Positions 6,419 to 37,164 of a stretch of DNA of 64,000 bases are shown one piece after another. How positions within the stretch are numbered: position 1 is the first letter of the stretch; every line of letters begins with the position of its first letter. The notes under the pieces were generated by a model. It made no database searches and was not told the DNA's origin. It saw only the letters and a list, made by a program, of their open reading frames with translations. The position numbers and the translations under genes were made by a program. The DNA comes from Blasia pusilla (taxonomy: Eukaryota). The stretch covers positions 10,106,001 through 10,170,000 of the forward strand of contig CM114271.1 in assembly GCA_050084515.1 (NCBI GenBank), written 5' to 3'.

Positions 6419-6729
6419 TGTGGAAAACTGCTAAAGAAGCATAATTGGTGGGAAACGACTCTCACACTCACACAGCACCATGGAGAACAAAATTTGCAAT
6501 GAGAGAATAAGTGGAGGCTGGTCCCTTCTCAATTTTATAGGGTATGTACAAGCTACCCTAACCCTAACCTTAACCATAGTCTCGAGTTAGACTAAATATG
6601 ATTAAATAACCCTAGTTAAAATAATCGCGCTTAACTGACTAACCAAGATTAAGCTTCCCTATTTCGTGTGAGTACCAAATATAGCAATTCAGTTATCTCA
6701 TGAGCTTGACTGTAACTCAATCTTCAATC
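6419..6729 (-). repeat. Copia 5' LTR
   Basis: Direct repeat of 1430-1741, adjacent to the Met-type PBS. Confidence 0.93.
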
Positions 6730-15400: not shown

Positions 15401-18038
15401 TCACCCCACCCATCAAAAGAAATTGATGCTATAATTGTGAGGCAACCGATCATTGGGCAAACAACTGTCCCAACTCAAAGAGACTAGTGGGGTTGAATTC
15501 ATTGTGTGGTAATTGCAAGAAGGGAGGACACACTCCAGTGGAGTGCTCGGAACCTCAAGTGCCGCGGCTCTTGGTCAAATATGTAACCACTCCACCGGCA
15601 CCAACCAAAACCAAGAATGAGGTTAATGTGCAGCTAGTGCGCGTGTGGAAGAAGTCACCACACCAAGGATGCCAAGGAAGCTGACAATGAAGGAAGACGA
15701 CCCTGTAACGAGATCGACAAAGAGTCCTCAGATTGGCCCAAAGACATTCTCAACAAGGTCTTCCCATTGGAAACCACGTCCAAGTCTAAGAAGAAGACTG
15801 TGAGAGCAAGACCCCAGAATCTTCATCTTTTGAAAGTGTTAGGTCTACGAAGAAAGCGGTTGAGACATTTCTGCGCGGGAAAGCTATTCTGAAAGGTAAT
15901 GAGGACCTAACTTTTGATCGTAATCATCCAAAGTACTTCCATCCGGAAGTAGAGGAGCAGGTCCGTAACCAAGTTCAGGAAGAACAAGCAAGGGGAGTCT
16001 TCGTGCAATGACCCTTACATAAGCACAAAGAAGTAAAAATGGAGACCTCGTTGGCTTCCCCTTTGGTGATGGAAGCTTACGACTTGCTGAAGTATTTGGT
16101 TGCCATTCCAACAAATATGCATTTTTTGCACTTACTTATGGATAATCCCATTTATGGGAAAATTCTCCAATGTTGGAAGGTTGGACGTAAGAAGAAGGCA
16201 GGAGCAAAGAAGCTCCCACTGGTGGATTTTTTCCGCATAGAAGTTGAAGACCTTGGTGTGTCGGAAGTGGAAGTTGAAATTGAAGGGCATACCATCAAGA
16301 AGGTCCCTATAGATTCTGGAAGCAGGATCAACATCATGACAGAGTAGATCGCTCAGGCTTTAGGTCACACTAAGTATGAATCCACCGATAAGTATTTACG
16401 CTTCGCGGATCAGTCTCGTAAGCGGCCCTTGGGGCAGCTGACCCAGATATCCACTATGATAGGAGGGGTTCTATTTCTACTAGACTATCTTGTCCTTTAG
16501 CCTTTGACAGTCATAGATTACCCCTTACTCATTGGAAGACCGAGGCTTTATGGGGCTGAGGTCAATTCAAATTGGAAAAGACGAAGATTCACGTTCCAAA
16601 CGCCATCAAGTACTTCCAAGAAGTTGGTGAAGTTGTCTTGGAAGTCTCGGCCGTCTCAAGGAGAGACACCTGCCATGGATGAGGGGTATACCTTGGATCA
16701 AGACCTGGCAATTGATACTGAGTCCTTGTCCTATGTGTGCTACTAGGAGTGCTATGAGATAGATGAAGAATTTCTACAATCAGAGCAAAGCAAGTCCTTC
16801 CCAAGAGAGGAGCCAACTAGGCTCACTACCTACCAATTCACGGACAAAATGGTGTAGGTAAAGGACTACCAAGAAGTCTTGATCAGCAATACTAAGGCAT
16901 TACGTTTGTCTGCAGACTTGATGCATCTAAAATTTCACTATATAAAACTTTGCTTTCGAAGTACCTTGATGTGTTTGCCTACACCATGGATGAGATAAAA
17001 GGAGTACGAGCCAAATATGGGGAGCATAGAATTGATCTAAAGCCTGGGGAAATCCCTGTGCAAATGTGGTAGTATAGATTGAATCCAAAGTATTCCTTAA
17101 TGGTCAAAGATGAAAATGATCAGAGGTTGGAAGAAGGAGTCATCTATCCGGTGCTTAGTAGTGAGTGGATGTCTCCCATAGGCATTGTTCCGAAGAAGAA
17201 GTCGGGTAAGATCAGGGTATGTCAAGACTATAGGAAGCTTAATGCGGCCACCCTGAAGGATCATCATCCCCTGCCCTTTACCGATACTATCTTAGATAAA
17301 GTGGCTGGTCATGAACGCTACACATTCCTGGACGGATATTTCGGTTACAATCAAGTGTCCATTAGAGAAAAGGACCGGGCCCTGACTACCTTCACCACAG
17401 ATTGGGGTACTTTTGCCTATCGAGTGATGCCTTTTGGCATGTGCAATGCCCTTGCCACTTTTCAAAGAATGATGATCTCTATCTTTCAGGAGTACTTGCA
17501 AAGGTTCATAGAGATCTTCTTGGATGACTTTTGTGTCTTTAGCTCGACAGCCGATCATTTGCAGAAGCTAGAGCTGAACTTGGCTTGGTGCAAAGAAGTG
17601 CAATTGTCTTTGCACTCAGAGAAGTCTTACATTGCAATGAAGCATGATATCCTATTGGGGCATCAAGTGTCTTCGCGTGGTATAGAAATGGATAAGGCTA
17701 AGGTGGAAATAATTTCAGAGTTGGAAGCTCCCATGAATCTTCATGAGCTAAGAGGATTCTGGGGGGTTCTATTGCCCGTTCATTAAGGATTATGCACTAA
17801 AGGCAAAGCCTTTAACTACCCTACTGAAGAAAACTGAGGAGTGAGAGTGGTTGCCAGTGTGTCAGACGACATTTGATGAGTTGAAGCAGGAGTTGATAAC
17901 TTCTCCTGTGCTTCGTCCTCCGGACTGGACGAAGACATTTCAAGTGTATGTAGACACCTCTTCGTTTGCCATTTGTGTAGTACTAAATCAATTAGATGAG
18001 AAGAAGAAGGATTACCTTATCTATTACGCAGGTCAGAA
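12439..18038 (+). mobile_element. 3'-truncated Athila-like Ty3/gypsy element (partial 5' LTR to ~13697, PBS, gag, PR, RT, start of RH)
   Basis: LTR homology, PBS TGGCGCTGCTGCCGTGGA (13721-13738) resembling the tRNA-Asp-type Athila PBS, and the coding motifs listed in the next feature. Confidence 0.88.
14279..18038 (+). pseudogene. gag (three CCHC-like knuckles), protease, RT, partial RNase H
   Basis: MAQPRKALLRYPTF..; CSACGTQGQTVPECP, CYNCEATDHWANNCP and CGNCKKGGHTPVECS; VPIDSGSRINIM (PR); QDYRKLNAAT..FLDDFCV (RT); QVYVDTSSFAI (RH). Confidence 0.9.
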
Positions 18039-19297
18039 ATACAATTGATAGATCATTTGGAATGATCTCAACGTGTAAAATAAATTTGCAGCATTCCCAT
18101 CGTCCTCTGAAGGGGAAATATCTCTAAAGCATGTCAATACTGATTCTAGAGAATCACACAATGTGGTCACAGCTTGCCAACGGGATAACCATCTAATCTT
18201 GTGGTATCTCTTCATAACTCGTTGGGAGTCATTGAATTTTTCTTGCAACGATGCTAGAATTGTTTTCCTCTTGGACGACCTTCTAAAGTAACCAGCTATT
18301 GCATTGAGAATCGAATCGACTTCAGAGGATATTGACTTGCAATCAGGAGCTTTCGCAGCTGACAAAGCCGCCAAAATTGTTCTATGGGCTACACAATGAA
18401 CTGAAAGAATATAGGGATTTACCTTCTGCTTTATTTGGGAGGCCACCCCTGTCTGGCTACCTACCATTGTAGAAGCTCCATTTGAACCAAATGCTACCAT
18501 TGTGGAGAATTCTAACCCTCCATCTTTGATTAGTTGCAACAAACTTTCAGTAATAGCATTGGAACATTTTGATTCGCAACGAAGTAGTCCCGGAAAACAA
18601 CATTCTGCGTGGCCCTCTTCAATGAAGGTGGCAAACAAAACCAAATGCCCTGTTACAGATATATCAGTTGACTCATCGATCATAATGCCATAGAAAGGAG
18701 AGGCTTGAACTCTCACAAGAGTTCTTCTAAACAAAACTTGGCTAATGAAGTAACACATCTCACTACAACTCTTTTCATCATGATATAAATCTCAGGTAAT
18801 AGAGGTATTGATCAATAACATTAACTTACAAAGGCTAGGAAATTAAAAAAATGGCATAGCCTCCTTCGCAAGGAAGTATGCGCACTTAAACAATGTCAAC
18901 AACGCGATTTCACAAGTGCGGTTGGTGGTGGAAACTTCTTACCCCCATGTGCAGCCCATGCAAGCTTGATGTGCTCGTTGGACTTGGCATGATCAGTGAA
19001 GGCTGAAACCTTACAGTTTATTGCGCCATCTTTGGCAAACACACTCTTTCCTTTCCCCTTCTTACAAACTTTACAAAAGATTCTACCAAGGGTTGAATCC
19101 CACTCAATCCAATCATACATCGAATATCATACATCCTTGCATGCTACACGAACTTTTCCAGGTACATTCGCACTGCTTCCTAACAAAGGCGACTCATCTC
19201 TATCATCAGATGAGTGAGACAATGCGATAATGTCACGCTCGTTATTGATTCGTTCCTTACCTAGGAAGGAAGTCATTGTCTTTTTCCTCTTGGCCAT
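18039..19297 (-). pseudogene. N-terminal half of hAT transposase (ZNF862-like type)
   Basis: N-terminal zinc finger (IFCKVC..H), YGIMIDESTD, VHCVAHR and KIRWLSR motifs, with frameshifts. Confidence 0.88.
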
Positions 19298-19898
19298 ATG
19301 CACTACTGGGCACTGGGCAACTATCTGGACTACAACATGAAAGCACGGAAGAAGGGCTACCCCACGGGAATAAGCTGGAATGGAGGAGCTGCAATGAGCT
19401 CCAAGATTTCAAAGTAAAGAGCAAAGTAAAGTGAGAGTAAAGTAAATAGTGAGCTGATAAAGAGCCCGCGGGATACGGCTAGGAGGAGGACACCCTGGCT
19501 CAAATCGAGATAAACCTTGGCCCAAATGAACATAAACCCTGGTCCAAATCGAGAGAAATCTTGGCCCTAATGGACAGAAACCATGGCCCAAATCTAGAGA
19601 AACCCTTGACCAAACAAAGAGAAACTCTGGCCCAAATTTGCATAAACCCTGAATCGCACGATGGAAAAAAAGGTGAAGTCGCGGTCGTGTCTAAACAGTT
19701 CTCAACGCTGGAAGTCCCCACCCGTAACCAAGTCGAACTAGAGAGAGTGTGAGTCTCTGAGAGCCGAGAGAAGTTGCAGCAGCTGCGCAACTTGGAGAGG
19801 CCCGCGTAAATGTAGGCGATTTGCGGAGCAGCAGAGCAAATCGATGCAAACTTGCTAAGGAAACAAAAATAAGAAATATATCCCGGCTGCTTGAGAGA

Positions 19899-20004
19899 TG
19901 TCGTGCGAATCCACATCGTCATACAACATACATCGTTGACATACCATACTCACATACGTACATAACATAGACGAGAGTATCCACAAACGCAAGTGTACCA
20001 CAAC
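19899..20004 (-). repeat. Repeat unit A, terminal copy (106 bp)
   Basis: Direct repeat of 20375-20480, with two substitutions seen. Confidence 0.95.
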
Positions 20005-20372
20005 TGAAATCCGTGAAAGACCTACTGTCATAAAACACGTTTACAATCACATACAATCGAGCCAAACCCACTCCACGATGGGAGAATCCAGGTCGAAGCT
20101 TGCGGGAAACACCATAGCCAAGAGCTCTACTCACTACCAAGGCTAACTCCCAACGCAATAGGCTCAACTCAAAGAACTGACTGTTCTTTGAGTGCACTCC
20201 ACCTTATATCCTCCAACCTAAGAGCGGGCCCTACTAGGAAACTCACCCCCAACTGAGTAACCTCCAACCCTATGTATGGAACCGCATCTCTACCAAGCCA
20301 CTACGGTCCTACATAAGGAATGACCTCTACTAGCACACTATACTCTACGACATAATCCGTATGGTCATGACA
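20005..20372 (-). repeat. Repeat unit B, 3' copy (~370 bp)
   Basis: Direct repeat of 29271-29640 with only a few differences. Confidence 0.95.
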
Positions 20373-20374
20373 GC

Positions 20375-20480
20375 TGTCGTGCGAATCCACATCGTCATAC
20401 AACATACATCGCTGACATACCATACTCACATATGTACATAACATAGACGAGAGTATCCACAAACGCAAGTGTACCACAAC
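20375..20480 (-). repeat. Repeat unit A, internal copy directly after the polypurine tract
   Basis: Direct repeat of 19899-20004. Sense AGGGGGGCGA (20490-20481) abuts it, and GC separates it from B. Confidence 0.95.
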
Positions 20481-20653
20481 TCGCCCCCCTAACTGGCGGT
20501 TAGGTCCCTCTAACTCCCAGGTAGCCCTATACATCTACTACATGCTATACACCTTCTTGGGTGCCTGAATCACAAGGCCGGGTGCTAGGTTGCCCCATCG
20601 TTAGTCGCACATCTGTAATCCATATCATGCAAAGATCAAGTCATCTACCTCTC

Positions 20654-20794
20654 CTAAGTACATCGAGGACAAACCCACCTTCCAAGAGGGAACAACATCC
20701 AAACGTGGAGTCAAACACATCATGTGCCAACCCCTAGAACACCGATCACACACCAACATACGGGTGCGTTACGTGCAGACCCACACAACATGCA
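20654..20794 (-). pseudogene. PHD finger (C4HC3) at the C-terminus of pol
   Basis: Manual minus-strand translation: CMLCGSARNAP / MLVCDRCSRGWHMMCLTPRLDVVP / GRWVCPRCT*, with two 1-nt frameshifts. It is not visible in the ORF track. Confidence 0.88.
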
Positions 20795-20799
20795 CCTCA

Positions 20800-21970
20800 A
20801 GCTAGCACGTATCATGGCTAAGCTTGGGTCAATCAGATACCATCCACATTTGGAAGATGACATGGCGCACAATTACGCACATGGTCCTTCCAAACAACTC
20901 CATCACGACCCTCCAACATGAGAACTCCAGAAGCTAACACCTCGCGCACTCATAAAATAGTGCGGCCTGCCGTCACATCCAACGTTGTCAGGGCAATCTG
21001 CTGCAAATAGACATAGTCCCCCACATGGAACCTACGAATCGATGGTCGATAACCTCCACCTCGAATGGTTGCATACCGCAACGTATCCCCTGTGTTGAGC
21101 AATGGCAAGATTCTCAAAGGTCGTTGGCATAACTCTCCGAAAGAGCTCCGCCCGTTGAGAACACACCCTCATCCACATCTCCGGGTCATCAAGGTTCACC
21201 ACCTCACTAGACTCCCGACCAATTCTTTGGCAAGTCGGATCTCGGCCGTATAATGAAAATAAGGTGAGAAGGAAGCCAAGGATGCTTGACGATCGAACCT
21301 ATACCCCATGGCTAACCATGGCAATCGAATATCCGGTCTCCAAGATGCCCTTCAGAGGCCATACTTGCGCAATGCCCTTTTCATCGCCCCGAACCACACG
21401 CTCAGCCAAACCATCCGCCCCGGATGATCTCGAGACGTGGTCCGATGATCAATCAACGCCTTGTCACACAAGACTGAAACTCATCCTGAAACTCAGACCT
21501 GGTTGGTCAAGACTTGGTGATGCACCAAAATGACTAAGCACTCTATCCAAACGCATACGCCATTCCCTCACTCGCCTTGTCCGGTAATGCCACCAACTCA
21601 ATCCACTTGGAGAAGTGCTCCACCATCACCAACACATATCGATGATGTCGTACAGTCAACGGTAACGGTCCCGCAAAGTCCACACTCCAATGGTAACCCA
21701 ACCCCATAATAGGCAAGGGGTGTAATTGTGGTGTATGGGCATTAAATGATGCCCTCACCCGGTCACAAACCATACAATGTGACACCAACTGCTGCACCTG
21801 AGTATGCATGCCACGCCACCAATCTTCGCCAAGGAGTAAGCTATACGACGCTTTACCCCAAAATGTCCCAACTCCTCATGGGCATGTCGCACAATGCGCT
21901 CTCTCTGAGCCAAATGTGGCACTACTCGTACTCTACCATCCTCCCACACGCGGAGAATATGTGTTCCCTC
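20800..21970 (-). pseudogene. Ty3/gypsy integrase
   Basis: HAHEELGHFG..CMVC (HHCC) and WSVDFAGPLP..VMVEHFSKWIE (DDE core), frameshifted. Confidence 0.9.
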
Positions 21971-23640
21971 CAATCGATACCTCTTAGCACGTTGAAGAAC
22001 ACGGTCTCGCTCCTTGGCACCCTACTGGTTCGTAGGAACTCCAACACCAACGCATCATCATGAATATCACGCTGATCCGTACCACCATCTCCAACCTTAG
22101 GATCTGAAGGCTGGCCATCTACCCTCTGACTAGAGTAAGATATCATGTGGTCCTCCATACTAGAGTCCACCCCTAACCAACATAAAAAGGCGGATGCATG
22201 CCAACCTGGCACCATCTCCTCATCAACCTCGCCATGCCATCTAGCCCTTGTTGTATCCTCTTGGCTAGTACATGGGTTCCTACTCAACCCATCAGCATCA
22301 AGGTTGGCAACTCCAAGTCTATGTACCACCTGGAAGTCATACTCCTGTAAGATAAGAGCCCACCGTGCAAGCTTCCCTGTAAGCTTGTCCGACTCCATCA
22401 ACCACTTGAGCGGTTGGTGATCAGTAACAAGGGTAAACTGGGTGCCAAACAAGTAACACCTAAAGTGTGCCACAGCCCACACTACTGCCAAGCACTCTCC
22501 CTCATATGAACTATAGCGCGACTCCGCTGCATTATTCGAACGACTTGCATAGGCCACCACAAACTCCATGTGCTCATCATCATGTTGTGTCAACACCGCT
22601 CCAAGTCCCAACCTACTCCAATCAGTGTGTAATTGAAATGGGCGCCCTCTGATAGGTCTCCTCAAGATAGGCGCCGCCACCAACTGGGCCTTAAGCTCCA
22701 CAAAAGCTCTCTCCTGATCATCTCCCCAGTGCCACTCTTGATCTGATTTCAGCAATTGGTTCAAAGGCTTTGCCATAGCACTAAATTCCTTCACATACCT
22801 CCGATAGTAGTTCGCCAATCCCATGAATGCTCGAACTCTACTCACATCTACCGGACACGGAATAAGAGCAATAGCCTCCACCTTTGCTTGCTGAACTCCC
22901 AAACCACCTGGATAGATCACATGACCCAAGTACTCAACATCCTCATGGAAGAACTTACACTTTCCTGGATGCAAACGTAGACCATGAGCTTTCAACCGCT
23001 CAAACACCATCTGCAAATATATTTGATGCTCCTCCACCGTGTTACTGAACACCAAGATATCATCAATGTAACACCGAACAAAATCCAACCCTGCTAGGAT
23101 CCTGTCCATCACTCTTTGAAACTCGGCAGGTGCATTCTTCAACCCAAAGGGTAAGAATTTCCACTGGTACAAACAATCCTTGCCATGAGAGTTGACACCC
23201 CAAAATGTTGTCTTGGCCTTGTCACTCTCCCGAATCGGCAATTGATGGTATCCTGCCCGAAGATCCAAAGTACTGAAAATCTTTGCCTGTCCCACCACAT
23301 CAAAGATCTCCTCATGTGTAGGCATGGCATACCTATCGGCCTTGGTTTGCCGATTGATAGGACGGTAATCTCCACACATCCGCCTATCCGTAGTTGCCAT
23401 GCATATCCTTTTAGCAAGCATGACAGTGGTCGATGCATACTCTCCATGCGACAACTCCACTAATCCAGCCTCCAAAAGATCCAACGTCCTACTCAATCAA
23501 GTCCTCTCCATATCACTATATCGGTAGGGACGACGGTAAGATTGGCGTATCACTAGCCAAATCAATCCGTATACCGGGTCCAACCAGAGAACCCAACTCC
23601 TTCATGCTAAAGGCAAAACAACTCCTATAAGCACGTAGGA
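21922..23640 (-). pseudogene. Ty3/gypsy reverse transcriptase and RNase H
   Basis: The 524-aa ORF contains RMCGDYRPIN, LDLRAGYHQ, LPFGLKNAP, YIDDILVFS, LHTDWS..GAVL, YEGECLAVVWAV and TDHQPL. Confidence 0.95.
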
Positions 23641-23994
23641 ACTGTGTCAAGCGTCGTTTCTCACCTCCCGTAAGCTTGGGCCCAAGTAATGGCTTCCAAT
23701 TCTCCTCCACTGGCACACTAGAGGGAGAGGACGATGCCATTGGTCGCTCATAACCCCCTCACAAGATGGTACACCCTTAGCTACACCATCATCTGAGCAA
23801 ATAACTCCTCCACCATCATGAGCAACCAACTCCATATGCCCAGCCATTACATCCCATTTACTCCAAGGATGCAAAATACTACTCTCCTCGCCCCCAGCCG
23901 ATGCCTCTACCGTCCCGGTAGCCATCGAGCTCATTACAAGGGGTGGAAGACCCACAGACATAGTCCAAAGTCGACGCTGCTCGGCCATACCAAG

Positions 23995-24940
23995 ACTCAA
24001 AATCCAAGTCAAACAATTCAGGTCCATGGCCTGACCCAACACATGACGTCGTGAAGCCTCACAAATAGAAGCAACCGTTGTCACACCAGTAGCAAATCCC
24101 ATCGCACGCTCTCTCTCATTAGTGTTAGGCTCCACCAACTGTCGCACATGAGAATCCCATACAAGCCCCGGACCACCTTCCCTGTAGGCATGTGACGAGG
24201 GAAAACTCACAAATGTGGGTAGTGCCATCCTAGGCTGGCCCACACGGTTCACCACCGCCATGGGTGACCGATCAATAACCCTCACCACTTGAGAAAGTCG
24301 CCCAAGATCAAGATACTATCCACTTTGTAAGGCGAGGATCCCGCCAGACCGCATCATATGCTCGACGTAGAACCTCCTAGGCAACAAGTTTGTCCACCAC
24401 AAGCGTGGGCGATGTGCACGCTGAGCCAACTCTTGCATCAACAACACCGCTGGTCCAATCCAAGACCGCACCTCATGAACACTCGCCATCATCTGGGTCC
24501 GAGTGTCACCCAACAATGGAACATTCTCCAGAATGTAAGCTAGAGCACGTGCCTGATGAACCTGAAGATGTCGTAACACCCGTAACATCTCCCAAAACAA
24601 TCGAGACCTAGGGTCATATAATCCCTCACCACGACCAGCACGTGTATGACCCTGACATGACCATCCAGCAATCACCAAATCCACAGGACCAATACCCTCA
24701 AAGTCCTGCGCCCCCAACAATGCAATGTGTGATGGTAAAGCACGCTGGTACCCACTAATAGCTGATGGCGGCAACAACTCAGGATACCTCCGCATCAACT
24801 GACCAATATGTCGGGATGAGACTCTCTGGGCCGTCTCATCTCGCTCCACATACACGTATCTCCGCCTGGAATACCGCCCGCAACATCAGAGCCAAACCAG
24901 TGCTAATCCCACCAAAGAGATCTAACACACAAATGCCCTC
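23995..24940 (-). pseudogene. DNMT3-like DNA (cytosine-5) methyltransferase domain within pol
   Basis: Motifs in canonical order: VLDLFGGISTG (I), YVERD (II), DLVIAGWSCQG (IV), RLFWEMLRVL (V), YILENVP (VI), AHRPRLWWTNL (VIII), ERERAMGF (IX), RRHVLGQAMDL (X). A few frameshifts. Confidence 0.92.
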
Positions 24941-25299
24941 CGCGGATCTTGCGCCATACAATGGGTGTAGTATCCAAAGGAGATAACCCAATCGGGCCAC
25001 AAGTAGGAGTCCGCCGTGGGGCCTCCTCTTCCTCGTGAGGTATAATGACCTCACACCAAGCCTCTCTGCACTAGGCGTCGCCTCTGCCGTAGTGCACCGC
25101 CTGAACTCCAAAGTGGCACATCCAACGATGAGGATGCCACTGCTGCAAAAATAGGGACCTCCTCTACCTCCTCATGCGCAGGAGAATCCATAGCAGAAAC
25201 ATTACCCTCCAAAAAGTCTCCTGGCCAAGTGACTACTCCACTAAAACCAGCCACAGATGCTAACACTGTTGGGGAAGACCCTCCTGGTCGAGCCCCAGA

Positions 25300-25780
25300 A
25301 ATAAATCTCACACGAACTTGGCTCATACGTCCATCCCGGACGCCAACCAGGTCAGAAGACGCCTGTCTCGACCCGATAATCCATCTGAAAACCCATCGGG
25401 TACAATATTGCTCCTCCAACTAGTACATCATACGACTCGGCTGATGTGACTACCGCAGATACTCCCAACCGGGAGCTATCAGTCGCATGATCTGGTCTCA
25501 ACTGTACAGAAAACTTTTCCCGTGTCATGAATTGAGACCTATCATTGGCTCCTCCAAGTGATGTTTGAATCTGGAATGGGCAAGGCTCAAGCTCTGACCT
25601 CCGAATACCCAAACCAATACATGCCGCCTTTCCCAACATCAAGGTTGGGCACCGAGTCTAACAAGACTCTATCGGTCTATACACTCCCCAGTAGGACTCA
25701 CCAATCGGAAGATCCCACTCCGGTTGTCCAACATACATACACCAGGTGTAAGCCTCTCACGATCAATGGTGGCCGGGTGG
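25300..25780 (-). pseudogene. Aspartic protease
   Basis: RVLLDS(G)AQP.MLG (frameshifted here, intact LLDSGAQP in the copy at ~56900) followed by YDVLVGGAIL. Confidence 0.8.
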
Positions 25781-26299
25781 TAATGCATCCATCTTCGCCG
25801 CCGCCAAGTAGCACCGGTACTCAATGCTACTCGACATAGAGGGTCGCTCCACCGCAACACCCTCATCCACCTCAACACGTAGCAAGAACACCCCACGTTC
25901 ACACAACGTGGTCGCGAATCGAAATACAGAGCTAAGTCAACTCCTAAAGCCATCGCTCCGTGGCCGAAAACAATGGGGATCCCAACACTGAAGTTGCCAT
26001 CCGCACATAATCTTGCATTGATCTTTGCATCCGTGTCTACTACACGCGATGTAGATGCCTCGATCCCCACACTCGGCTCAATAGGCTGCGAGGAACCATG
26101 GATGGAGTCCTAAGCACCTCGCAGACAACAAGAATGATGGGAAGCCTAGCTCGCCTCCCGGCCTCACCCTCTATGGGTCCAACTCACAAAGAGCACCACG
26201 TGGCTCGACGCTCGAGTGGCTCCTCTCAGAATCGCAGCTTGGTGATGCCTCAACTTTGTGTTGCACTCGCCATATAAGAGAGATCATCCCCTCCATAAG

Positions 26300-27783
26300 A
26301 GGTGGAAGCCCCTGCTCCCGAACTGATCTATCTTTGGATACCAGCCATAGTAGCCAACTTCTGCTCCAACTGCTCAATCCTGGCAGCCATAGCTGACTCT
26401 GTCGTAGTGGTAGGGGCTACCACCAGTGGTCCACCTCTACCACCCCTACCACCTCTACCACCTCGGCCTCTCGGAGCTACTCCACCACGGCCACGGCCTA
26501 ATCTCAACTCGGGATGGAGATCAAAGCAACGCTCTCGAGGATGACCTAGTCTCCCGCAATGATCACACTGAGTTGGGGCCGACTGAGGCCCATCCTCCAA
26601 AGTCCGTCTCCCATCCTCTTGGGGACAAAACTTCCTAACATGATCACCTCCACATGTCCAACATGATCGCCCTGCCGCGAGGCAAAGCAAATGAAGGCAA
26701 TGGTCTCTGCACAAATGTCCTCTAGGACTTGATCGAGGTCGCGTGTACCCCCACGACTCCCACTACTACTACCACCACCACTACTACGAGATCGTGAGGT
26801 GGGGGCGGCTGAACACGAGAAGTAGTAGTTGTATCCCTCTCGAATGCGGATGTCACCACTCTCTCCTTCACCATGTTAAGCTCAATCTTCTCAGATAGAG
26901 CAAACACATGGGTCAATGTGGGTGAATCATCACTCATAAGAGTAGCATCACGCACCCTACGGCACAAATCTCTGCCCAAGATCCCATACTAAAACCGGAT
27001 GCTCGATCCTAAGTCACACCCTGGGTAATCGAAATCAGCGTCGATACGCGTGTATGCCTCACGAAGACTCTCACCGAGTCTTTCGCTCAAAGTCCTGAAG
27101 ATTCCTCAACTTCTCCGTCTTCACTCCTTGATAATTCTTCCTCAACCTCTTGAAGAACTCGCAGAACCGGGCTAACGATGGTGGGGCACTAGTACCTCCA
27201 CTAGTACCCCCACTAGTACCTCCACTTTGGTACCCCCACTCGGCTCAGATTCGCACCACCACTCGGGTCGGGCCGGGCCGGGCATAGTAGGAGCACTACT
27301 ACCAATACCACCATGGGTGATAGACACATAGCCTGGAGACCAATATTGTCTCCATGCCTCAATCTCAGCAACATGGTCCTTCCTAGACTCATGGTAATCA
27401 TCCATAGGTGGTCCTTCCAAGTGCTGAAACAACCCCTTCCAAGCCAAGAAGGGTGTAAACAACGTGGCATTCCGCAACATCTGCATATCACACCACGTAT
27501 CAAACTCCTGCATGAAGTCCTCCAACTCAATGGTACCCACTGCACCCAAGTATCGTCGTGGGCCCTTCATGGCCCCATATCCACCGTCCATGTCCCAAAT
27601 CAATGGAGCTGCAACACTCGATAACAACGTAGAAGACTCGGTGTTTGGAACACCCTCGTCCTCCTCTTCATCAACCGTCGGAAGTGAAAAAGGTGGCCAA
27701 TACCTAAATCCACTCCGTGTGAAACCACCACTGTCCGCACCACAGTCCCCAACCAGACCACCCGACAGCTCCGTGATGACCAA
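26300..27783 (-). pseudogene. gag with zinc knuckles and RGG-rich tail
   Basis: CWTCGGDHVRKFCP, CDHCGRLGHPRERCF and RGGRGGRGG; homologous to 57660-59100. Confidence 0.82.
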
Positions 27784-29259
27784 CGCCGATGCCGCACCAC
27801 CACCAAATTACCCAAGTGACGTCGATGTCGCTCTACTATTGTAGCTCTACTAGCTATGGGTGTAGGCAATCTAACCTCTCATCACTACAAGAAGCCTCCC
27901 ACGGTCTACTGGTCATCACTCCAGCCTCACTACCGGTAGCACACAGGAGTAACACTACTCTGGAAATCAGCGTTAACCCTAACAATGGGCGCGCAAGCAA
28001 GAAGCACGATGGAGGGGATCCAAACACAGGAAGTCCAACGACAACCCTCCAACCGCAAATGAAAATCAAGGTAACACAATCCACCAAACGTGGTGCCCCT
28101 GAATCCACAAAACCCACCACACAATTCTAACGCAATAGCTACTCCGCCGTGGTCGATGACGACTAGTCGAACTCGCAAAGACCTGAAAATATCACTGCAT
28201 GGAGAGGCTACACCGTACTATGCGCTAGAGGTACATCAACCAAAAACTTGAGATGCATAAAGCGCCTAACACATCTCCGAACAAAGACCAAATGAGCTAC
28301 AACAGTCAGACATCGGCCTAGTTAAGAACTCAAAGCAATTAAGCGTCCTCCAGCAGAATAGCCCAAAGATGGGTGACCAGTTATGCAAAACTCAAATCCC
28401 AAATCCTGCAAAAATTGCCTCACGCCCAAGCAAGCAAGCTTGCTTGCTTGCTCTTTGCTCCTTACTCCGCCTCTCACGCCCACTCGCCCCGAGCTACCAC
28501 GAGTTGCCTCAAAGCCTCAAAACGCCGTGATATGCCCCGTTCGCCACGCTTCGCCATGCTTCGCTATGGAGAGAGGTCCAACCAGGGCGCCCCCAACGGG
28601 ATAGGCGTCTCCAAAAATGAACGAGTCACCAACCAACCAGCCCCTCCGATCCACTGTCCACCATAGCCAGACCTTGAGCTGTCCGCGAAATTTCGATCAG
28701 AAATTACTTCACAAATACGTGACCGAAATCAAATCTGTTTCGATCAGAATTCAATTGACCACCATAGCTATCTCCCCACAAAAACTCAGCTACAACCGAG
28801 CTCCGTGCCGAGCTAAAAATCAGACAAACTTCTTTGTCCATACACCTCTAGAACAAAATCCAATGGCGCTTCCGCCAAGTTTCATGCACGCAGAAATCCA
28901 TAACGCTCCACGCACTCGAGCAGATAGCTTCACATGAGATCACAATACAAGTAGCAATAGGAACCTCTCACCCGATCTGGATGAACTTCAACAGAGCTTC
29001 CGCACTCCAAGCTCTCCACATCGAAAAGCGTCGAACACGAACAGAATCTTCAATGCTTGATAACTTCCAACTCCCTTGACGAAATCCATCTCTGGTAGCG
29101 TTGGAAAGCTCTCAGCAAGGCGCTTCTTTCCCAACCAACCACGCACCTGATTCACACCTCCAACATAGGCAACAAGCCCCGAACATCCACGGCTGAGTAC
29201 ACAATCAGCCCTAACCAGATCCTACTGATCTACAATCGAAGCTACCATCGATCTACTCC

Positions 29260-29270
29260 AGTTCTTTGAG
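29260..29270 (-). promoter_or_regulatory. Putative self-priming primer-binding site
   Basis: Sense CTCAAAGAACT directly follows the CA end of B. It lacks the TGG start of a tRNA PBS and is the exact complement of sense AGTTCTTTGAG (29446-29436). Confidence 0.75.
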
Positions 29271-29640
29271 TGAAATCCGTGAAAGACCCTCATTGTCATA
29301 AAACACGTTTACAATCACATACAATCGAGCCAAACCCACTCCACGATGGGAGAATCCAGGTCGAAGCTTGCGGGAAACACCATAGCCAAGAGCTCTACTC
29401 ACTACCAAGGCTAACTCCCAACGCAATAGGCTCAACTCAAAGAACTGACTGTTCTTTGAGTGCACTCCACCTTATATCCTCCAACCTAAGAGCGGGCCCT
29501 ACTGGGAAACTCACCCCGAAGTGAGCAACCTCCAACCCTATGTATGGAACCGCATCTCTACCAAGCCACTACGGTCCTACATAAGGAATGACCTCTACTA
29601 GCACACTATACTCTACGACATAATCCGTATGGTCATGACA
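29271..29640 (-). repeat. Repeat unit B, 5' copy (5' LTR equivalent)
   Basis: Direct repeat of 20005-20372; sense TGTCATG...GATTTCA. Confidence 0.95.
29444..29476 (-). promoter_or_regulatory. Putative LTR core promoter (TATA plus initiator)
   Basis: Sense TATAA starts at 29476, and the A of an Inr-like TCAGTT is at 29446, 30 nt downstream. Confidence 0.6.
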
Positions 29641-31725
29641 GAGAACACAGTCCGGGAACAATGGAGGGTTGCAGCCTTTCCAAGAGTCACGGACGTGCCA
29701 CACATTGAGCAGCCCCCATACCGATCCTTAGCAGTAACGCTACCAAGCCCACTAAAAACGACCAAGCCAAGGCTGCCAAGTAGTAATGCGAGCAGCAAGC
29801 TTACAGGATTGGGAAGCACAATAGCAGCAAGACGGAGCGCCAGGAGCCAAGCTACAGAAGATTTCACAACACGAGAACCTGACGTGAGAGACAGCACTGG
29901 AGCAACAACGCGAATGACGTTTGTGAAGGTCAGAAACATGACCAGCGAGCGGTGAGAGGCAAGCTTGCATGATCCAACAGCAGCAGCAACGATACGAAGC
30001 ACTAGAACAGCAATGCGAAACTCGGGGAGAGACAGCCACTCGAACGGCAAGGCGAATGAAGATCTGAGGGGAAGAAACGCGAGCGGCGAGAGCAGCGAGA
30101 CGGAGCGTTGGGAGCGGAGACTCCACGAGTCCACAACATGCGAATGAGGCCCCCAAGGGCGCGCAGTGGGGTCTCCACCCTACTACGAGCCCCTAGGGGG
30201 ATATGGCACTTCTACTTCCAACCGTCGGATTCAGATCGGACGGCTCAAATTAGTGTGCCCTAAATGGGCTTAGGGCACACATTTGAGCGGACGGTCTAGA
30301 TCCATCAGTCTCCCCCTCATCGAATCCTCAGCGTCACTCGTACTTTTCCGGCAGCTGGCACCCCAGGCGGAATATAACCGTCCGCCGGTAAGAGCACTCC
30401 AGCCAGTAACCGGTTTCCCTACCCGGACGGCGCCACTTTTTGACGTCTTCCTGCCGGGAAACAGTCAAATTCCAGCGCCTTGTCTTTGTGCCTGACAGTT
30501 GCCAGTATCTACTCAATTTCACCCGGAACTGCTGCCGGGAATTTTTTCAAATCGTCGGAAATGTCTGAAAACTGCCGGCCGGGATTACTCATAACCTCGG
30601 ATCTCTCCGAACATTGCTACAGAAATTCCATATTTAATGGAACGAATAACATTAGAAGTCACTGAAAAGTGACGGGGCTATGGATCCTCAATAATCGTTG
30701 AAAAATCACTCGAGTGGAGTGTTGGTGGAAAGTTCAACCTTTCAGGCTCTATTCTAAGACAGATTCTTATGCCGCGTTTGACTGAGATGCCGATTCTGCT
30801 GAACCTGTTCTCGTAATTCCTACTCCGGATTCCACCGCCCCAAATCATTAGCCTGGACCACTCACTAGCTGGGTACGTACGCCACGCCGAAGTACTAACT
30901 CTTATCTTCTATTCAGGAACACAGAGCCATCGCTTGCCGGCCATTTTTTGGATGTCATGGGATTACACTTTCGTGCGGAACAATCGCTCCAGAGGAGTGA
31001 CTGACTCGCCGTTGGCAGGGTAGTCGTGTCCATCAAGTCACATTCTGGACAGCCCCGGAATAGAGACATCCGATTTCAAACCGCAGTGGTGGTACATTGT
31101 CAGTCACTTAAGTCTAACCGAGGTATCTAGCTGGGGTCCGGAATTGGCGGTAAGTCTACTTCAAGTCTTGTCACCTGGTTCCATCAACAAGAGTCATCAA
31201 ATTAAGCCTGTTTTTCTTTTAATTCCTACAATTTTGATCCCCAGCATTGTCGTTTAGTTTTGGCCCAACTCTTACCCAAATAAAGGAATGCTAGAAGCTC
31301 CCGGTGGATCGACGTGACGGCGGGCTTTCATCACTCCTGAATACAGACGCCCAGCACCCACCTAGTGCGTAAATGCGTGGAAGCATGAGACTTGTGATCT
31401 TTGACATAATTCTGCTAACAGGTGAGATCAGGAGTTGATAATCTCGATCAGAGCAAGCGAATAGTGATCCCAAAGTCATTCCGTAGTGAAAGGTTAGCAG
31501 GTATGTAATTTACTAAACCAGCCCGTGAGATTACAGAACATGTACGCTCAGAAGTCGTTTGAGAGAATCGCCATGATAGACCGCAAGAAGAAATTAGTAT
31601 GTGGTGCTGATTCTGTGTCACATAATCCTGCTCGAGTGTCACTTGTATATTCTTCCAACGCAATGTCAACTTTTGCTTTCCTCTTGGGCGGTCGCGCTCA
31701 TCGGCCAAGAGAGTAAAGAGCCTTT

Positions 31726-32805: not shown

Positions 32806-35800
32806 CAAGGTTTTTTTGAATTGTCGGGTTATTACAGGTATCATTGATATTTTTTCGGATATTCTTTTTAAGTGCATGTCGTAATAGGAATATTTGTAGC
32901 TTTTCAATTATTTTCTGGAAATTCTTTTTCTCGTCGGTTAAAATTCGAAAAAAAAAATTTCTAATTTTCTTATTTCTGGGGTTGAATTTTTTTTCTCTGC
33001 CAATTTCCGATCGAACTTTGTGAAGCTGGCCAAAAACCGACCGTTCCTAACGTGGCCGGAATTTTTTTTCTTCACACACTCCTTATATTCTCCACAACCC
33101 TGCAATGCTGAAAAACCTAATTCCTGATATCAAATTCTTCCCCTGAAGTAGACATGCAATCTTCTAGTATGCAATAAAAAATGCAATCTTCTAACACAAT
33201 AAAAGAAAATCATCCTTGACAGGAGTTGAACCTGACAGAACTCCCACCAGTTGGGAACCAAGGATCCTACCCCTCTTGAATACTTGGAGCCATGAGGCTC
33301 CAAGTATTCAAGAAGGGTCCTACTTCCTAAGACCTAAATGATCAAAGTCTTCTAATCTAGAGGGGTTTCAATAACTTCAACTTCCTCATTCGGGGAGATG
33401 TATCTATCAGGATTTGCAAACAAGTACCTAAAATGAGCAGAATTCTTCCACAATATCACAGACTCAGACAACATCTCCTCATAATCAGAGGAAGGTCCTT
33501 CTAAGGCAATCCTCAAGACAACATCTAAATACTTTGTGGTGAACCTATTACGAGATTTACTCTTGATCGTGTTTTGAATGGAAAAGGCTCTCTCACATAT
33601 GGCAGTACTAACACACTGGACTCTAGCTATATTTTCCAAAATCAACAAATTAGAAAACTTACATTGCAATGACGGACTCCAACTTACCATCGCCCACAAG
33701 TCTCTGAAGTTGCGATCTTTCCACTCAGTGGTAGCCATCAATTTGAAAGATTGGAACTCTTGCTTAACAATCAAAGAATTAATGATAGTTGGTTGCAACA
33801 CACCCCGTAATGGCAATTGATTTCCAAAAAAACCACAAAAATCATCTAAATCTTTACACCCCCAACTATTCAATCCCACTTTCCGAGAAGGCATGTGCAA
33901 AGGATTGATTATTCTCATAGATCCAATCAGGTTATTATCTCGAAATTGCTCATGTAAAGATATACACACACTTTCAGCAAACCTTTTCAGAAAGAATAAT
34001 GCATCCTCTAAGTCCCTTTCGGTCCGATCTTGAGACATAGCAATGCTATGAAACTTATTTCCCCTCATCGTGGATTGTAAACGACAAAGATAACCACCAA
34101 GTGGCCCAAAATCAAGAAGTATATGGTAACATGTATCTTTAGAGAAGGTGGAGGCATTCAAGTCATGAGTTTCCATGACAAAATTCATGGTAATCCTAGC
34201 TATCTCCGAATTCAAAATGCTCCCTATAGTGCTAATATTCACAAACTTGTACTGAAATATCTAACTCGGATTTGCAAGCATCGAAAGAATGTCAGCCAAA
34301 AAGTACACTTGATAGATCATTTAGAATGATCTCAACGTGTAAAATAAATTTGCAGCATTCCCATCGTCCTCTGAAGGGGAAATATCTCTAAAGCATGTCA
34401 ATACTGATTCTAGAGAATCACACAATGTGGTCACAACTTGCCAACGGGATAACCATCTAATCTTGTGGTATCTCTTCATAACTCGTTGGGAGTCATTGAA
34501 TTTTTCTTGCAACGATGCTAGAATTGTTTTTCTCTTGGACGACCTTCTAAAGTTACCAGCTATTGCATTGAGAATCGAATCGACTTCAGAGGATATTGAC
34601 TTGCAATCATGAGCTTTCGCACCTGACAAAGCCGCCAAAATTGTTCTATGGGCTACACAATGAACTGAAAGAATATAGGGATTTACCTTCTGCTTCATTT
34701 GGGAGGCCACCCCTGTCTGGCTACCTACCATTGTAGAAGCTCCATGTGAACCAAATGCTACCATTGTGGAGAATTCTAACCCTCCATCTTTGATTAGTTG
34801 CAACAAACTTTCAGTAATAGCATTGGAACATTTTGATTCGCAACGAAGTAGTCCCGGAAAACAACATTCTGCGTGGCCCTCTTCAATGAAGGTGGCAAAC
34901 AAAACCAAATGCCCTGTTACAGATATGTCAGTTGACTCATCGATCATAATGCCATAGAAAGGAGAGGCTTGAACTCTCACAAGAGTTCTTCTAAACAAAA
35001 CTTGGCTAATGAAGTAACACATCTCACTACAACTCTTTTCATCATGATATAAGTCTCAGGTAATAGAGGTATTGATCAATAACATTAACTTACAAAGGCT
35101 AGGAAATTAAAAAAATGGCATAGCCTCCTTCGCAAGGAAGTATGCGCACTTAAAAAATGTCAACAACGCGATTTCACAAGTGCGGTTGGTGGTGGAAACT
35201 TCTTACCCCCATGTGCAGCCCATGCAAGCTTGATGTGCTCGTTGGACTTGGCATGATCAGTGAAGGCTGAAACCTTACAGTTTATTGCGCCATCTTTGGC
35301 AAACACACTCTTTCCTTTCCCCTTCTTACAAACTTTACAAAAGATTCTACCAAGGGTTGAATCCCACTCAATCCAATCATACATCGAATATCATACATCC
35401 TTCCATGCTACACGAACTTTTCCAGGTACATTCGCACTGCTTCCTAACAAAGGCGACTCATCTCTATCATCAGATGAGCGAGACAATGCGATAATGTCAC
35501 GCTCGTTATTGATTCGTTCCTTACCTAGGAAGGAAGTCATTGTCTTTTTCCTCTTGGCCATGTGCACTACTGAGCACTGGGCAACTATCTGGACTACAAC
35601 ATGAAAGCACGGAAGAAGGGCTACCCCACGGGAATAAGCTGGAATGGAGGAGCTGCAATGAGCTCCAAGATTTCAAAGTAAAGGGCAAAGTAAAGTGAGA
35701 GTAAAGTAAATAGTGAGCTGATAAAGAGCCCGCGGGATACGGCTAGGAGAAGGACACCCTGGCTCAAATCGAGATAAACCTTGGCCCAAATGAACATAAA

Positions 35801-37164
35801 CCCTGGTCCAAATCGAGAGAAATCTTGGCCCTAATGGACAGAAACCATGGCCCAAATCTAGAGAAACCCTTGACCAAACAAAGAGAAACTCTGACCCAAT
35901 TTTGCTTAAACCCTGAATCGCACAATGGAAAAAAAGGTGAAGTCGCGGTCGTGTCTAAACAGTTCTCAATGCTGGAAGTCCCCACCCATAACCAAGTCAA
36001 ACTAGAGAGAGTGTGAGTCTCTGAGAGCCGAGAGAAGTTGCAGCGGCTGCGCAACTTGGAAAGGCCCACGTAAATGTAGGCGATTTGTGGAGCAGCAGAG
36101 CAAATCGATGCAAACTTGCTAAGGAAACAAAAATAAGAAATATATCCCGGCTGCTTGAGAGAACACAGTCCGAGAACAATGGAGGGTTGCAGCCTTTCCA
36201 AGAGTCACGGACGTGCCACATATTGAGCGGCCCCCACACCGATCCTTAGCAGTAACTCTACCAAGCCCACTGAAAACGACCAAGCCAAGGCTGCCAAGCA
36301 GCAATGTGAGCAGCAAGCTTACAGGATTGGGCAGCACAATAGTAGCAAGACGGAGCGCCAAGAGCGGAGCTACAGAAGATTTCACAAAAGGAGAACCAGA
36401 CGCAAGAGACAGCACTAGAGCAGAGACGGGTACTGGAGCAGCAACGCGAATGACGTCTGTGAAGGGCAGAAACGTGACCAGCGAGCGGCGAGTAGCAAGC
36501 TTGCAGGATCCAACAACAGGAGCTGCGATATGGAGCATTGGAACAGCAACGCGAAACTCGGGGAGAGACGGCCACTCGAACGGCAAGGCGAATGAAGATC
36601 TGAAAGGGTAGAAATGCGAGCAGCGAGAGCAACGAGGCGGAGCAGCGAGACGGAGCCTTGGGAACACAGACTCCACGAGTCCACAACATGCAAATGAGGC
36701 CTCCAAGGGCCCGTAGTGGGGTCTCCACCCCACTGCGAGCACTTGGGGGATATGCCACTTCTACTTCCAACCGTCATATTCACATCGGACGGCTCAAATT
36801 AGTGTGCCCTAAATGGGCTTAGGGCACACATTTGAGCGGACGGTCTAGATCCATCTGTCTCCCCCTCAGCAAATCCTGAGCATCACTCATACTTTTCGGG
36901 CAGTTGGCACCCGAGGCGGCAAATAACCGTCCGCCGGTAAGAGCGCTCCCGCCAGTAGTCGGTTTCCTTACCCGGACGGCGCCACTTTCTGACGACTTCC
37001 TACCGAGAAATAGTCCAATTCCGGCGCCTGGTATTTGCGTCTGACAGTTGCCGGTATCTACTCAATTTCACCGAGAACTACTGCTAGGAATTGTTTCAAG
37101 TCGTCAGAAATGTCTGAAAATTGCCGGCGGGATTACTCGTAACCCGGGATCTCTCCAAATATTG
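32806..37164 (-). mobile_element. hAT DNA transposon copy 2, complete (4.36 kb)
   Basis: Perfect 8-bp TSD TTCGGATA (32798-32805, 37165-37172), termini CAA...TTG, and a hAT transposase inside. Confidence 0.93.
33352..35561 (-). pseudogene. hAT transposase (ZNF862-like type), disrupted
   Basis: Zinc finger, DESTD, HCVAHR, RWLS and the C-terminal dimerisation motif STAICERAFSIQNTIKSKSRNR, with stops and frameshifts. Confidence 0.92.

Follow-up and report, generated by a model that had tools for sequence, protein, structure and literature searches.

The window considered here is a 64-kb stretch of DNA (64,000 nucleotides) from Blasia pusilla (assembly GCA_050084515.1, contig CM114271.1, positions 10,106,001 to 10,170,000 of the forward strand). 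It carries a decayed retrotransposon, here called copy 1, which very probably is a Ty3/gypsy-type element with the order gag (with a CCHC zinc knuckle), protease (PR), DNMT3-like cytosine-5 methyltransferase (C5-MTase; DNMT), reverse transcriptase (RT), RNase H (RH) and integrase (IN), and belongs to an old streptophyte lineage shared with KnitGypsy-Dnmt3 of the alga Klebsormidium nitens (de Mendoza et al., 2018, Nat Commun 9:1341; PMC5890265). The original prediction, made from the DNA letters, had placed a non-permuted DNMT3-like C5-MTase between the protease and RT of a Ty3/gypsy polyprotein, and Pfam, profile, tblastn and fold comparisons all uphold it. Comparison across relatives shows the methyltransferase as an integral, old module of an element lineage found in liverworts, Sphagnum mosses and charophyte algae. 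Copy 1 itself is a pseudogene, unable to make the enzyme. Its features, from the 5' end of the element, are these:

19899-29640, minus strand: copy 1, Ty3/gypsy-type element (self-comparison, junction strings and an uninterrupted paralogous site)
29641-29644: target-site duplication (TSD) GAGA on the element's 5' side (junction strings; the uninterrupted paralogous site, 36153-36168, has the sequence once)
29271-29640, minus strand: repeat A1, 370 bp, resembling a 5' long terminal repeat (LTR), starting TGTCATGACC and ending ..GGATTTCA in element orientation
29261-29270, minus strand: decamer CTCAAAGAAC, resembling a primer-binding site (PBS) and adjoining A1
26328-27807, minus strand: decayed gag region containing a CCHC zinc-knuckle stretch (Marchantia P0010 residues 1-534 by tblastn)
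25334-25936, minus strand: protease region, active-site stretch disrupted (by homology only, 52% identity to P0010 residues 542-746)
23803-24973, minus strand: DNMT3-like C5-MTase domain with its tail, a pseudogene (Pfam, phmmer, profile, fold, tblastn)
23746-23751, minus strand: site homologous to the family's conserved in-frame stop (alignment A4)
22339-23382, minus strand: RT and RNase H (open reading frame (ORF) 21922-23496: RVT_1 E 4.2e-32, RT_RNaseH E 3.7e-37)
21343-21875, minus strand: DDE integrase, zinc-binding part and core, decayed (Pfam; tblastn of Sphagnum fallax P0033 residues 1101-1241)
20482-20497, minus strand: run AGTTAGGGGGGCGAG (element orientation), resembling a polypurine tract (PPT), immediately 5' of B1
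20375-20480, minus strand: repeat B1, 106 bp, ending ..CGCACGACA, linked to A2 by the dinucleotide GC (20373-20374)
20005-20372, minus strand: repeat A2, 3' LTR-like
19899-20004, minus strand: repeat B2, the true 3' terminus, ending CA
19895-19898: TSD GAGA on the element's 3' side (junction strings)

The methyltransferase domain and its relatives

The motifs of the domain were read from minus-strand stop-to-stop ORFs together with the sequence. Motif I (VLDLFGGISTGL) lies around 24930 on the minus strand, followed by the motif II region (RRYVYVERDETAQRV), motif IV (DLVIAGWSCQGHTRAG), motif VI (YILENVPLL), motif VIII (RAHRPRLWWTNL), motif IX (EPNTNERERAMGF) and motif X (RRHVLGQAMDLN, around 24020, minus strand). 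Motifs I, II, IV, VI, VIII, IX and X are colinear in this order and share their strand with the upstream protease and the downstream RT. The span first proposed for the domain, 23995-24940, fits motifs I-X, and by homology the domain and its tail occupy 24973-23803. The Pfam scan covered 11 window ORFs, with matches in 4 and none in 7; a 189-aa ORF (24316-24885, minus strand) matched the C5-MTase family PF00145 at E 4.5e-7 (30 bits, against a cut-off of 22), so that the profile match sought for the prediction is present. When this piece was compared with the PDB by phmmer, 31 matches reached E<=0.01, headed by human and mouse DNMT3A (E 4e-5) and then DNMT3B. The C-terminal piece of the domain on its own gave no Pfam match and nothing credible by phmmer against the PDB; it was identified by 66% identity to Marchantia P0010 (tblastn). 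Among the other parts of copy 1, neither of the two gag ORF pieces has a Pfam family and the protease pieces have no Pfam match either; aspartyl-protease domains are found by Pfam at the corresponding position in relatives P0084, P0208 and P0215. The integrase ORF (21543-21875, minus strand) gives Integrase_H2C2 at E 1.1e-4 and rve at E 2.8e-4, each under the curated cut-off.

A family profile of 31 members (alignment A2) was run against the PDB, with these results:

DNMT3A: E 1.2e-29, profile positions 61-382, colinear from motif I to motif X
DNMT3C and DNMT3B: E about 1e-28
DRM: E 4.8e-17 to 5.5e-14, profile 64-192 only, on C-terminal chain residues 227-349
M.HhaI: E 3e-10
DNMT2: E 6e-7

No DNMT1 or CMT chain was matched at E<=0.01. 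The DRM match is partial, covering profile 64-192 on the C-terminal part of DRM, as a circularly permuted enzyme would be expected to give. An AlphaFold model of P0003, built with alignment A2, has a predicted local distance difference test (pLDDT) score of 81.1 and a predicted template modelling (pTM) score of 0.79. With this model, Foldseek returns 219 matches at E<=1e-3, led by DNMT3A, 3B and 3C (E 6e-19, template modelling (TM) score 0.82 on the target). The colinear profile and the predicted fold thus support a DNMT3-like rather than a DRM-like assignment, in line with the proposal of a non-permuted DNMT3-type enzyme unlike the circularly permuted plant DRMs.

Host DNMT3 enzymes have chromatin-reader domains at the N-terminus: PWWP and ADD in animals and, according to the consulted text of PMC12344493, a plant-specific domain. 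Pfam scans of the window ORFs and of 42 relatives gave no PWWP or ADD reader domain, and the element domain is therefore better described as a DNMT3-like catalytic domain than as a host-type DNMT3 protein. The catalytic Cys, ENV Glu, RxR Arg and motif I glycines vary little or not at all among 31 sequences whose mean column identity is 23%. P0010, P0025, P0028 and P0012, which comprise 3 of 16 Marchantia gene models and Calypogeia P0012, fit all six strict motif patterns. The similarity is well beyond chance, and the observation of a methyltransferase domain in the element is confirmed as real.

The window itself contains two further copies of the domain:

55508-58934, minus strand: copy 2, a truncated diverged relative with gag, zinc knuckle, protease and DNMT in copy-1 order
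2-7801, plus strand: copy 3, a third diverged relative represented by its DNMT domain in two parts, 2-331 and 7009-7801

Against copy 1, copy 2 shows 49% identity in gag, 48% in the protease and 55% in the DNMT (tblastn; overall range 40-55%), and its motif IV reads GWPC, followed by a stop. Copy 3 is split by inserted DNA that includes a copia-type element (SH3_retrovirus on 3340-3891, minus strand; repeats 1430-1740 = 6419-6728). All three window copies are dead.

An exhaustive search of a library of 1.84 billion proteins found 1338 relatives at E<=1e-3, of which 262 reach E<=1e-10. Among longer proteins, a word-indexed search gave 33 relatives at E<=1e-3 out of 1528 candidates, including proteins of Marchantia polymorpha, Calypogeia fissa and Sphagnum. 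Named relatives among the matches listed come solely from Marchantia polymorpha, M. paleacea, Riccia (R. sorocarpa), Calypogeia, three Sphagnum species, Closterium and Klebsormidium. No vascular plant, hornwort or Physcomitrium is named among the matches listed (the best 120 of 318 in one listing, with about a quarter of the proteins named), which is weak evidence of absence. In M. polymorpha several gene models are 90-100% identical to one another over the DNMT domain.

Domain order was read by Pfam in 30 long relatives. Six, two of them from Closterium and one being Klebsormidium nitens GAQ93235, have gag/PR-DNMT(-RT-RH-IN); in 18 the order is RT-RH-DNMT-IN, frequently together with a PHD finger; one (P0165) has RT-DNMT-Dam; and the remaining five have the DNMT domain only. 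By Pfam, Marchantia P0004 and P0006 run DNMT, RT, RNase H, and Marchantia P0010 is a CCHC protein with gag and, toward its C-terminus, the DNMT. The contig ORF P0110 (2188 aa) is an unbroken CCHC-DNMT-RT-RH-IN, and locus L054 carries the full gypsy and DNMT domain set in one frame. The view that the domain is no secondary insertion is supported indirectly, since copies 2 and 3 and relatives in liverworts, Sphagnum and algae keep the order. Among metagenome polyproteins, P0073, P0090, P0103, P0118, P0157, P0166, P0170 and others place a homologous DNMT after RNase H and ahead of integrase, and most of them also have a PHD finger at the C-terminus. This order in a sister group indicates that the module has moved within gypsy polyproteins.

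A scan of metagenome contigs took 379 pattern matches to 144 confirmed domain relatives, the best 80 of which were kept as loci. DNA identity of copy 1 to any of the 80 is at most 86%, and these loci therefore come from other hosts or subfamilies. Copy 1 aligns with L014 across 6.8 kb, unbroken around the domain. L054 (6810 bp) is the sole nearly intact locus: its gag-PR, DNMT and RT-RH-IN share a single frame, which two stops interrupt. Its CpG observed/expected ratio is 0.28 and its TpG/CpA ratio 1.46, against CpG values of 0.59-0.71 in decayed copies; as a single case, this depletion fits long-term CG methylation of an active lineage. The Klebsormidium protein P0099 (CCHC and DNMT) matches the window piece at 36% identity and 82.9 bits, compared with 26.8 bits for human DNMT3A, and matches the Marchantia domain at E 1.8e-56.

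Trees were built for the DNMT (66 rows) and the RT (42 rows), both as quick searches with support from the Shimodaira-Hasegawa-like approximate likelihood ratio test (SH-aLRT) only and with no host plant DNMT3; no host-type plant DNMT3 was among the matches listed in three word-indexed protein searches. In the DNMT tree a starred bryophyte clade (96-98) unites all three window copies with sequences of Marchantia, Calypogeia, Sphagnum and others, and copy 1 adjoins the Sphagnum group (83). The Klebsormidium, Closterium and P0110 groups are placed opposite this clade, beyond a weakly supported backbone, and the RT-RH-DNMT-IN group forms one starred clade. In the RT tree, too, copy 1 falls in a starred bryophyte clade; it groups with Marchantia P0004, P0006 and L054 (100) and is 86% identical to P0004; the DNMT-bearing elements separate (91) from the three other gypsy RTs of the window. 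The two trees show the same three major groups. The statement that a methyltransferase is not a standard feature of land-plant gypsy lineages needs refining, in that the trait is ordinary for one lineage widespread in liverworts and Sphagnum.

Selection was measured as the ratio of nonsynonymous to synonymous change (dN/dS; codon-wise Nei-Gojobori, medians), with closest pairs at a proportion of synonymous differences (pS) <0.1 and deepest pairs at pS 0.6-0.74, where dS is saturated and the ratios are rough:

DNMT: closest pairs 0.78 (109 pairs), deepest pairs 0.20 (267 pairs)
RT/RNase H: closest pairs 0.52, deepest pairs 0.23
gag-PR: closest pairs 1.10, deepest pairs 0.27

Close pairs reflect neutral decay after insertion and deep pairs the active lineage. 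Codon comparison thus shows the family's DNMT under purifying selection about as strong as that on RT (0.20 against 0.23 in deep pairs), which answers the concern that the domain might be evolving neutrally. Between copy 1 and L054, dN is 0.38 in the DNMT, 0.17 in RT and 0.70 in gag-PR.

Conserved stop, terminal repeats and transcription

The tail of the DNMT and the leader of RT share a frame in 36 of 51 loci. When the junction was translated in 28 loci, a stop stood at one column in all 28 (..SPKVFA*QPMASSS..), the divergent L054 included. A search with the stop-site pattern gave 54 loci after removal of three spurious rows (two of L031 and the second of L078), and the codon at the site is TAG in 33, TAA in 20 and TAC in one, hence a stop in 53 of 54. 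The usual contexts are TAG-CAA-CCC (30 loci) and TAA-CAA-CCC (19 loci), with CAA-CCA after TAG in L054 and after TAA in L038. At any other codon position a stop occurs in at most 17 of about 80 loci. The ORFs P0010 and P0028 (Marchantia), P0012 (Calypogeia), P0018 and P0009 terminate 94-100 residues past motif X; another clade of relatives ends at conserved C-termini of its own, and several eukaryotic gene models skip the stop site. In copy 1 the site (23746-23751) has a one-base gap against relatives, and the frame changes there from -2 to -1 (alignment A4). About 10 nt downstream of the stop lies a stem that is 94.8% paired in 28 sequences.

As a side observation, other nonsense positions are recurrent or inherited hot spots, at P0010 positions 990, 1094, 1097 and others, where as many as 17 of some 80 decayed copies carry a stop.

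Tobamoviruses read through UAG in the context CAR-YYA. If the family's stop is likewise leaky, the primary translation product would be Gag-PR-DNMT, RT-RH-IN would be made only via occasional read-through of UAG or UAA, and the enzyme, freed by the element's protease, would reach Gag-like abundance. Judged from the codon patterns, a main product of Gag-PR-DNMT with RT-RH-IN supplied by occasional read-through is somewhat favoured. Because the conserved in-frame stop lies between DNMT and RT, the enzyme falls on the Gag-side product. The proposal that it would be packaged with pol is thus probably wrong in detail, the stop in 53 of 54 loci parting gag-PR-DNMT from RT-RH-IN.

The termini of copy 1 are also unusual. 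Its order is A, PBS-like CTCAAAGAAC, gag, protease, DNMT, RT, RNase H, integrase, purine run, B, GC, A, B. In self-comparison A1 and the A2 stretch (20005-20373) are 98.1% identical over 371 bp, and B1 and the B2 stretch (19892-20005) are 96.5% identical over 114 bp. The element ends in TG..CA, with a 7-bp terminal inverted repeat TGTCRTG between the A1 start and B2, and the internal B-GC-A junction consists of both termini abutted (..CGACA GC TGTCATG..). The same A-coding-B-A-B layout, with its three junctions (purine run and B; B, GC and A; A and B), is found in loci L013, L044, L071 and L074, and L071 has a 4-bp target duplication, CATA. The PPT-B junction occurs in 17 loci on the element strand as well as in the window copy, with two more matches on the opposite strand. 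The possibility that these termini are a private rearrangement of copy 1 is ruled out, as four other loci and the element of the 2018 paper share the layout. The layout is DIRS-like in order, yet it is combined with a DDE integrase and a target duplication. The end structure looks as though a circular or end-joined cDNA had been opened at the internal CA-GC-TG by a DDE integrase, and the pairing of A-coding-B-A-B with a DDE integrase may indicate that such cDNA is the form that integrates, via this junction.

The decamer CTCAAAGAAC that follows the 5' repeat is complementary to GTTCTTTGAG within repeat A, and GTTCTTTGAG in the repeat folds back on a second CTCAAAGAAC to give a hairpin (at 29436-29460 and again at 20168-20192). 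The decamer is identical in L071 and L074 and has one change in L044 (TTTAAAGAAC), and the junction pattern of A1 and the PBS-like decamer, at up to 4 mismatches, is present in 28 metagenome loci and the window copy. No tRNA gene was called across the 64-kb window, and no ordinary TGG-type tRNA primer-binding site follows the 5' repeat. We infer that the decamer serves in self-priming, the arrangement being like that of self-priming elements such as Tf1.

RNA reads from three runs, whose species label is shared with the best-matching DNA run, were mapped to 20400-29250, where 2332, 2220 and 2464 reads fell per run. First mates are about 10-100 times commoner on the plus strand than on the minus strand; in bin 22472-22767 the plus and minus values are 118 and 9.5, 129 and 0.9, and 111 and 2.2. 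Depth in the DNMT bins is 14-35 and climbs to the 3' end. The RNA probably represents the sense strand of the element, provided the libraries are of the usual stranded type. At the frame break near 23537, a one-base indel relative to the window is present in 33 of 37 reads of run X22. As a further observation, reads that run from 21129 straight on to 22107 number 11, 14 and 25 in the three runs; they lack 977 bases of the integrase region and show 9 different letters there, so that in a transcribed relative this stretch has been swapped for 9 letters.

Function, contrary evidence and rival explanations

The enzyme might methylate cytosines, with CG as the probable context, either in the cDNA of the element itself or at a fresh insertion site, and the resulting methylation would alter how the host silencing machinery handles the new copy; this is possible, although on the doubtful side. 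A fuller picture would be that gypsy elements with recent activity exist in land plants, Marchantia polymorpha included, and that their main product is Gag-protease-DNMT3, RT and integrase arising only when a conserved UAG is read through, with the enzyme loaded into virus-like particles at capsid-like abundance and methylating its own cDNA before or at integration, a self-written epigenetic state. Taken whole, that picture is speculative and rather unlikely. Why retrotransposons carry cytosine methyltransferases has been an open question since 2018, and experiments are difficult in the algae and dinoflagellates that serve as hosts; with the lineage present in M. polymorpha, the question can be taken up in a transformable model plant whose methylomes have been mapped. 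The conserved stop changes the working model, in which the enzyme would be an abundant Gag-side product instead of a rare pol domain. Element copies also inflate counts of "DNA methyltransferase genes" in bryophyte genomes, where several are so named in public records.

A number of observations weigh against parts of this account, beginning with the state of copy 1, which cannot encode the enzyme. Its gag-PR-DNMT region contains 13 in-frame stops, 12 of them in gag-PR, and at least eight frame changes run across the coding region (tblastn with Marchantia and Sphagnum proteins). The catalytic Pro-Cys of motif IV is Ser-Cys. Likewise 54 of the 80 metagenome loci have no ORF of at least 300 aa on the element strand, so most known copies are dead. 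The saturation of dS makes the deep-pair dN/dS of about 0.2 a rough value. Deep nodes of the DNMT tree have SH-aLRT support of only 83-90 and its root is a long branch, and trees without host DNMT3 cannot separate the element domain from host DNMT3. The P0110 clade has a continuous ORF with no stop, and the conserved stop is therefore a trait of the bryophyte branch. Covariation in the stem is thin, with 18 double-change cells against 8.3 +/- 4.1 in shuffled alignments (5 of 500 shuffles reach it), mostly from one pair. The case for read-through is one of context, and TAG-CAA-CCC departs from CAR-YYA in the last base. For the RNA, sense orientation presumes the common library type, and reads at least 99% alike number 172 of 2332, 142 of 2220 and 164 of 2464, with many positions differing in all reads; given so few, the RNA comes from close relatives or another strain and is not demonstrably that of copy 1.

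Further signs of decay in copy 1 lie in the domain itself. Motif I (24973-24875, frame -1) is in another frame than motifs II-X (24864-23803, frame -2), the change lying near 24870. An in-frame TAG stands at 24316-24318, and several short stretches are locally out of register against relatives. RT/RNase H shows no in-frame stop in 383 aligned codons. Since the damage exceeds what a repeat divergence of 2% would lead one to expect, copy 1 may have been defective already at insertion. Its CpG observed/expected ratio (0.71, against 0.64 for the whole window) is like that of its surroundings and so gives no signal of self-methylation. An enzyme from this copy, as first envisaged, is accordingly not encodable, given the stops, the frame changes and the change from PC to SC; conserved key residues and purifying selection are features of the family and not of copy 1 (stop, frame change, PC to SC).

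Three other explanations have to be set beside the reading of an old element lineage with its own methyltransferase. The domain could have been retained without a catalytic function, for instance to bind DNA or chromatin or to choose integration sites, and not methylate DNA. KnitGypsy-Dnmt3 gave no detectable methylation in yeast, a result its authors call inconclusive in the text of PMC5890265 at hand; against this stand the near-invariant catalytic Cys, ENV Glu, RxR Arg and motif I glycines, none of which a binding-only module needs, and the four proteins that fit every strict motif pattern. A purely non-catalytic role is accordingly improbable. Bryophyte elements could also have gained DNMT3 independently of those in Klebsormidium and Closterium. 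Retrotransposons have captured DNMTs repeatedly, as far as the consulted parts of the sources go (PMC5890265; bioRxiv 10.64898/2026.05.21.726589), the deep branches of the DNMT tree are moderately supported with the RT-RH-DNMT-IN clade nested between gag-PR-DNMT clades, and identity to P0099 is low at 36%. Convergence is nevertheless very unlikely, for the domain sits at a shared position after the protease and before RT, the rare A-coding-B-A-B layout is shared too, P0099 matches the Marchantia domain far better (E 1.8e-56) than the window piece matches DNMT3A (E 4e-5), and the RT and DNMT trees agree in their three major groups.

Taken alone, copy 1, full of frame changes and with motif I off-frame, might suggest a patchwork, that is, a host DNMT3 retrocopy or fragment inserted in a gypsy element, or an assembly chimera. 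A one-off event of this kind is scarcely conceivable when three diverged window copies and many annotated proteins show the same order, when 144 metagenome stretches are confirmed relatives of the domain and when the 6.8-kb alignment of copy 1 with L014 is unbroken around the domain; it is refuted by the conservation of the architecture across relatives.

Surroundings and known systems

The window is a nest of retrotransposons. Besides the three copies it contains a further gypsy element:

47297-55314, plus strand: separate gypsy element with gag, protease, RT and integrase by Pfam

Its repeats (47297-48135 and 54521-55314) are 93-99% identical, and some 200 bp separate it from copy 2 at the latter's truncated end. 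Of 23 window ORFs of at least 140 aa, none was recognised by Pfam as a host gene. Copy 1 sits in a repeated unit of about 2.9 kb (18034-19898 and 29640-30616, compared with 34297-37164) that contains an ORF of 252 aa for which Pfam gave no match. Identity to the uninterrupted paralogue is 98.3% in the left half of this unit and only 87% in the right.

Our literature search, with subscription journals and supplements outside its reach, found no report naming a gypsy-DNMT from a liverwort, moss or other land plant. In the available text of PMC5890265, bryophytes feature only for host Dnmt3, and the acquisition is placed "in the K. nitens lineage". The consulted parts of PMC12344493 and bioRxiv 10.64898/2026.05.21.726589 cite the 2018 paper for retrotransposon-borne DNMT3 in "streptophytes". 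For split direct repeats in gypsy elements the search gave only papers on tyrosine-recombinase elements or general reviews, as judged by their titles.

The closest cellular enzymes are DNMT3A, 3B and 3C (6w89, 6u8p, 8tci). These share with the element domain colinear motifs I-X, the AHRxRxxWxNL, ERxxGF and RxxLG signatures, and the best profile and fold matches; they differ in that identity is about 20-22% and in that the window domain is embedded in a retrotransposon polyprotein, with no PWWP or ADD by Pfam. Plant DRM (4onj, 7l4c) likewise has a DNMT3-related catalytic domain in plants. DRM is permuted, however, with motifs VI-X ahead of I-V, whereas the element domain is colinear with DNMT3A.

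Leaky stops before downstream polymerase domains are found in gammaretroviral gag-pol and in the tobamovirus replicase. In common with these systems, the window family has a single in-frame UAG between an upstream product that would be abundant and a rarer extension with the polymerase, with CAA after the stop as in tobamovirus CAR-YYA. It differs in that its stop follows protease and DNMT instead of gag and in that the second downstream codon is mostly CCC.

Two retrotransposons with Dnmt3-type domains offer the nearest parallels, both described here from part of the 2018 text. SymbioDIRS-Dnmt3 of Symbiodinium has a Dnmt3-type domain in its polyprotein and the A-coding-B-A-B layout, and its enzyme performs de novo CG methylation in yeast (PMC5890265). 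It is of the DIRS class and has a tyrosine recombinase, whereas a DDE integrase, TG..CA ends and a TSD of 4 bp characterise the window element; with its rve and Integrase_H2C2 domains and with TSDs in the window (GAGA) and in L071 (CATA), the window element is not a DIRS-order element. The resemblance to KnitGypsy-Dnmt3 goes further and includes gypsy domains, an intronless, non-rearranged Dnmt3-like domain within the coding region, repeats arranged as in DIRS elements (Fig. 4c legend, PMC5890265), key residues and family-level purifying selection. The Klebsormidium protein P0099 is moreover a direct homologue of the window element's domain. Differences are that the window element lives in a land plant, that identity to P0099 is 36%, that copy 1 is dead, and that its bryophyte branch has a conserved stop after the DNMT, KnitGypsy-Dnmt3 being known here from text and not from its element map. 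The shared A-coding-B-A-B layout is strong evidence that the window element belongs to the KnitGypsy-Dnmt3 lineage. A gypsy-borne DNMT3 and the split-repeat layout have thus been published before; the land-plant host range and the conserved stop are, as far as that literature search reaches, new here.

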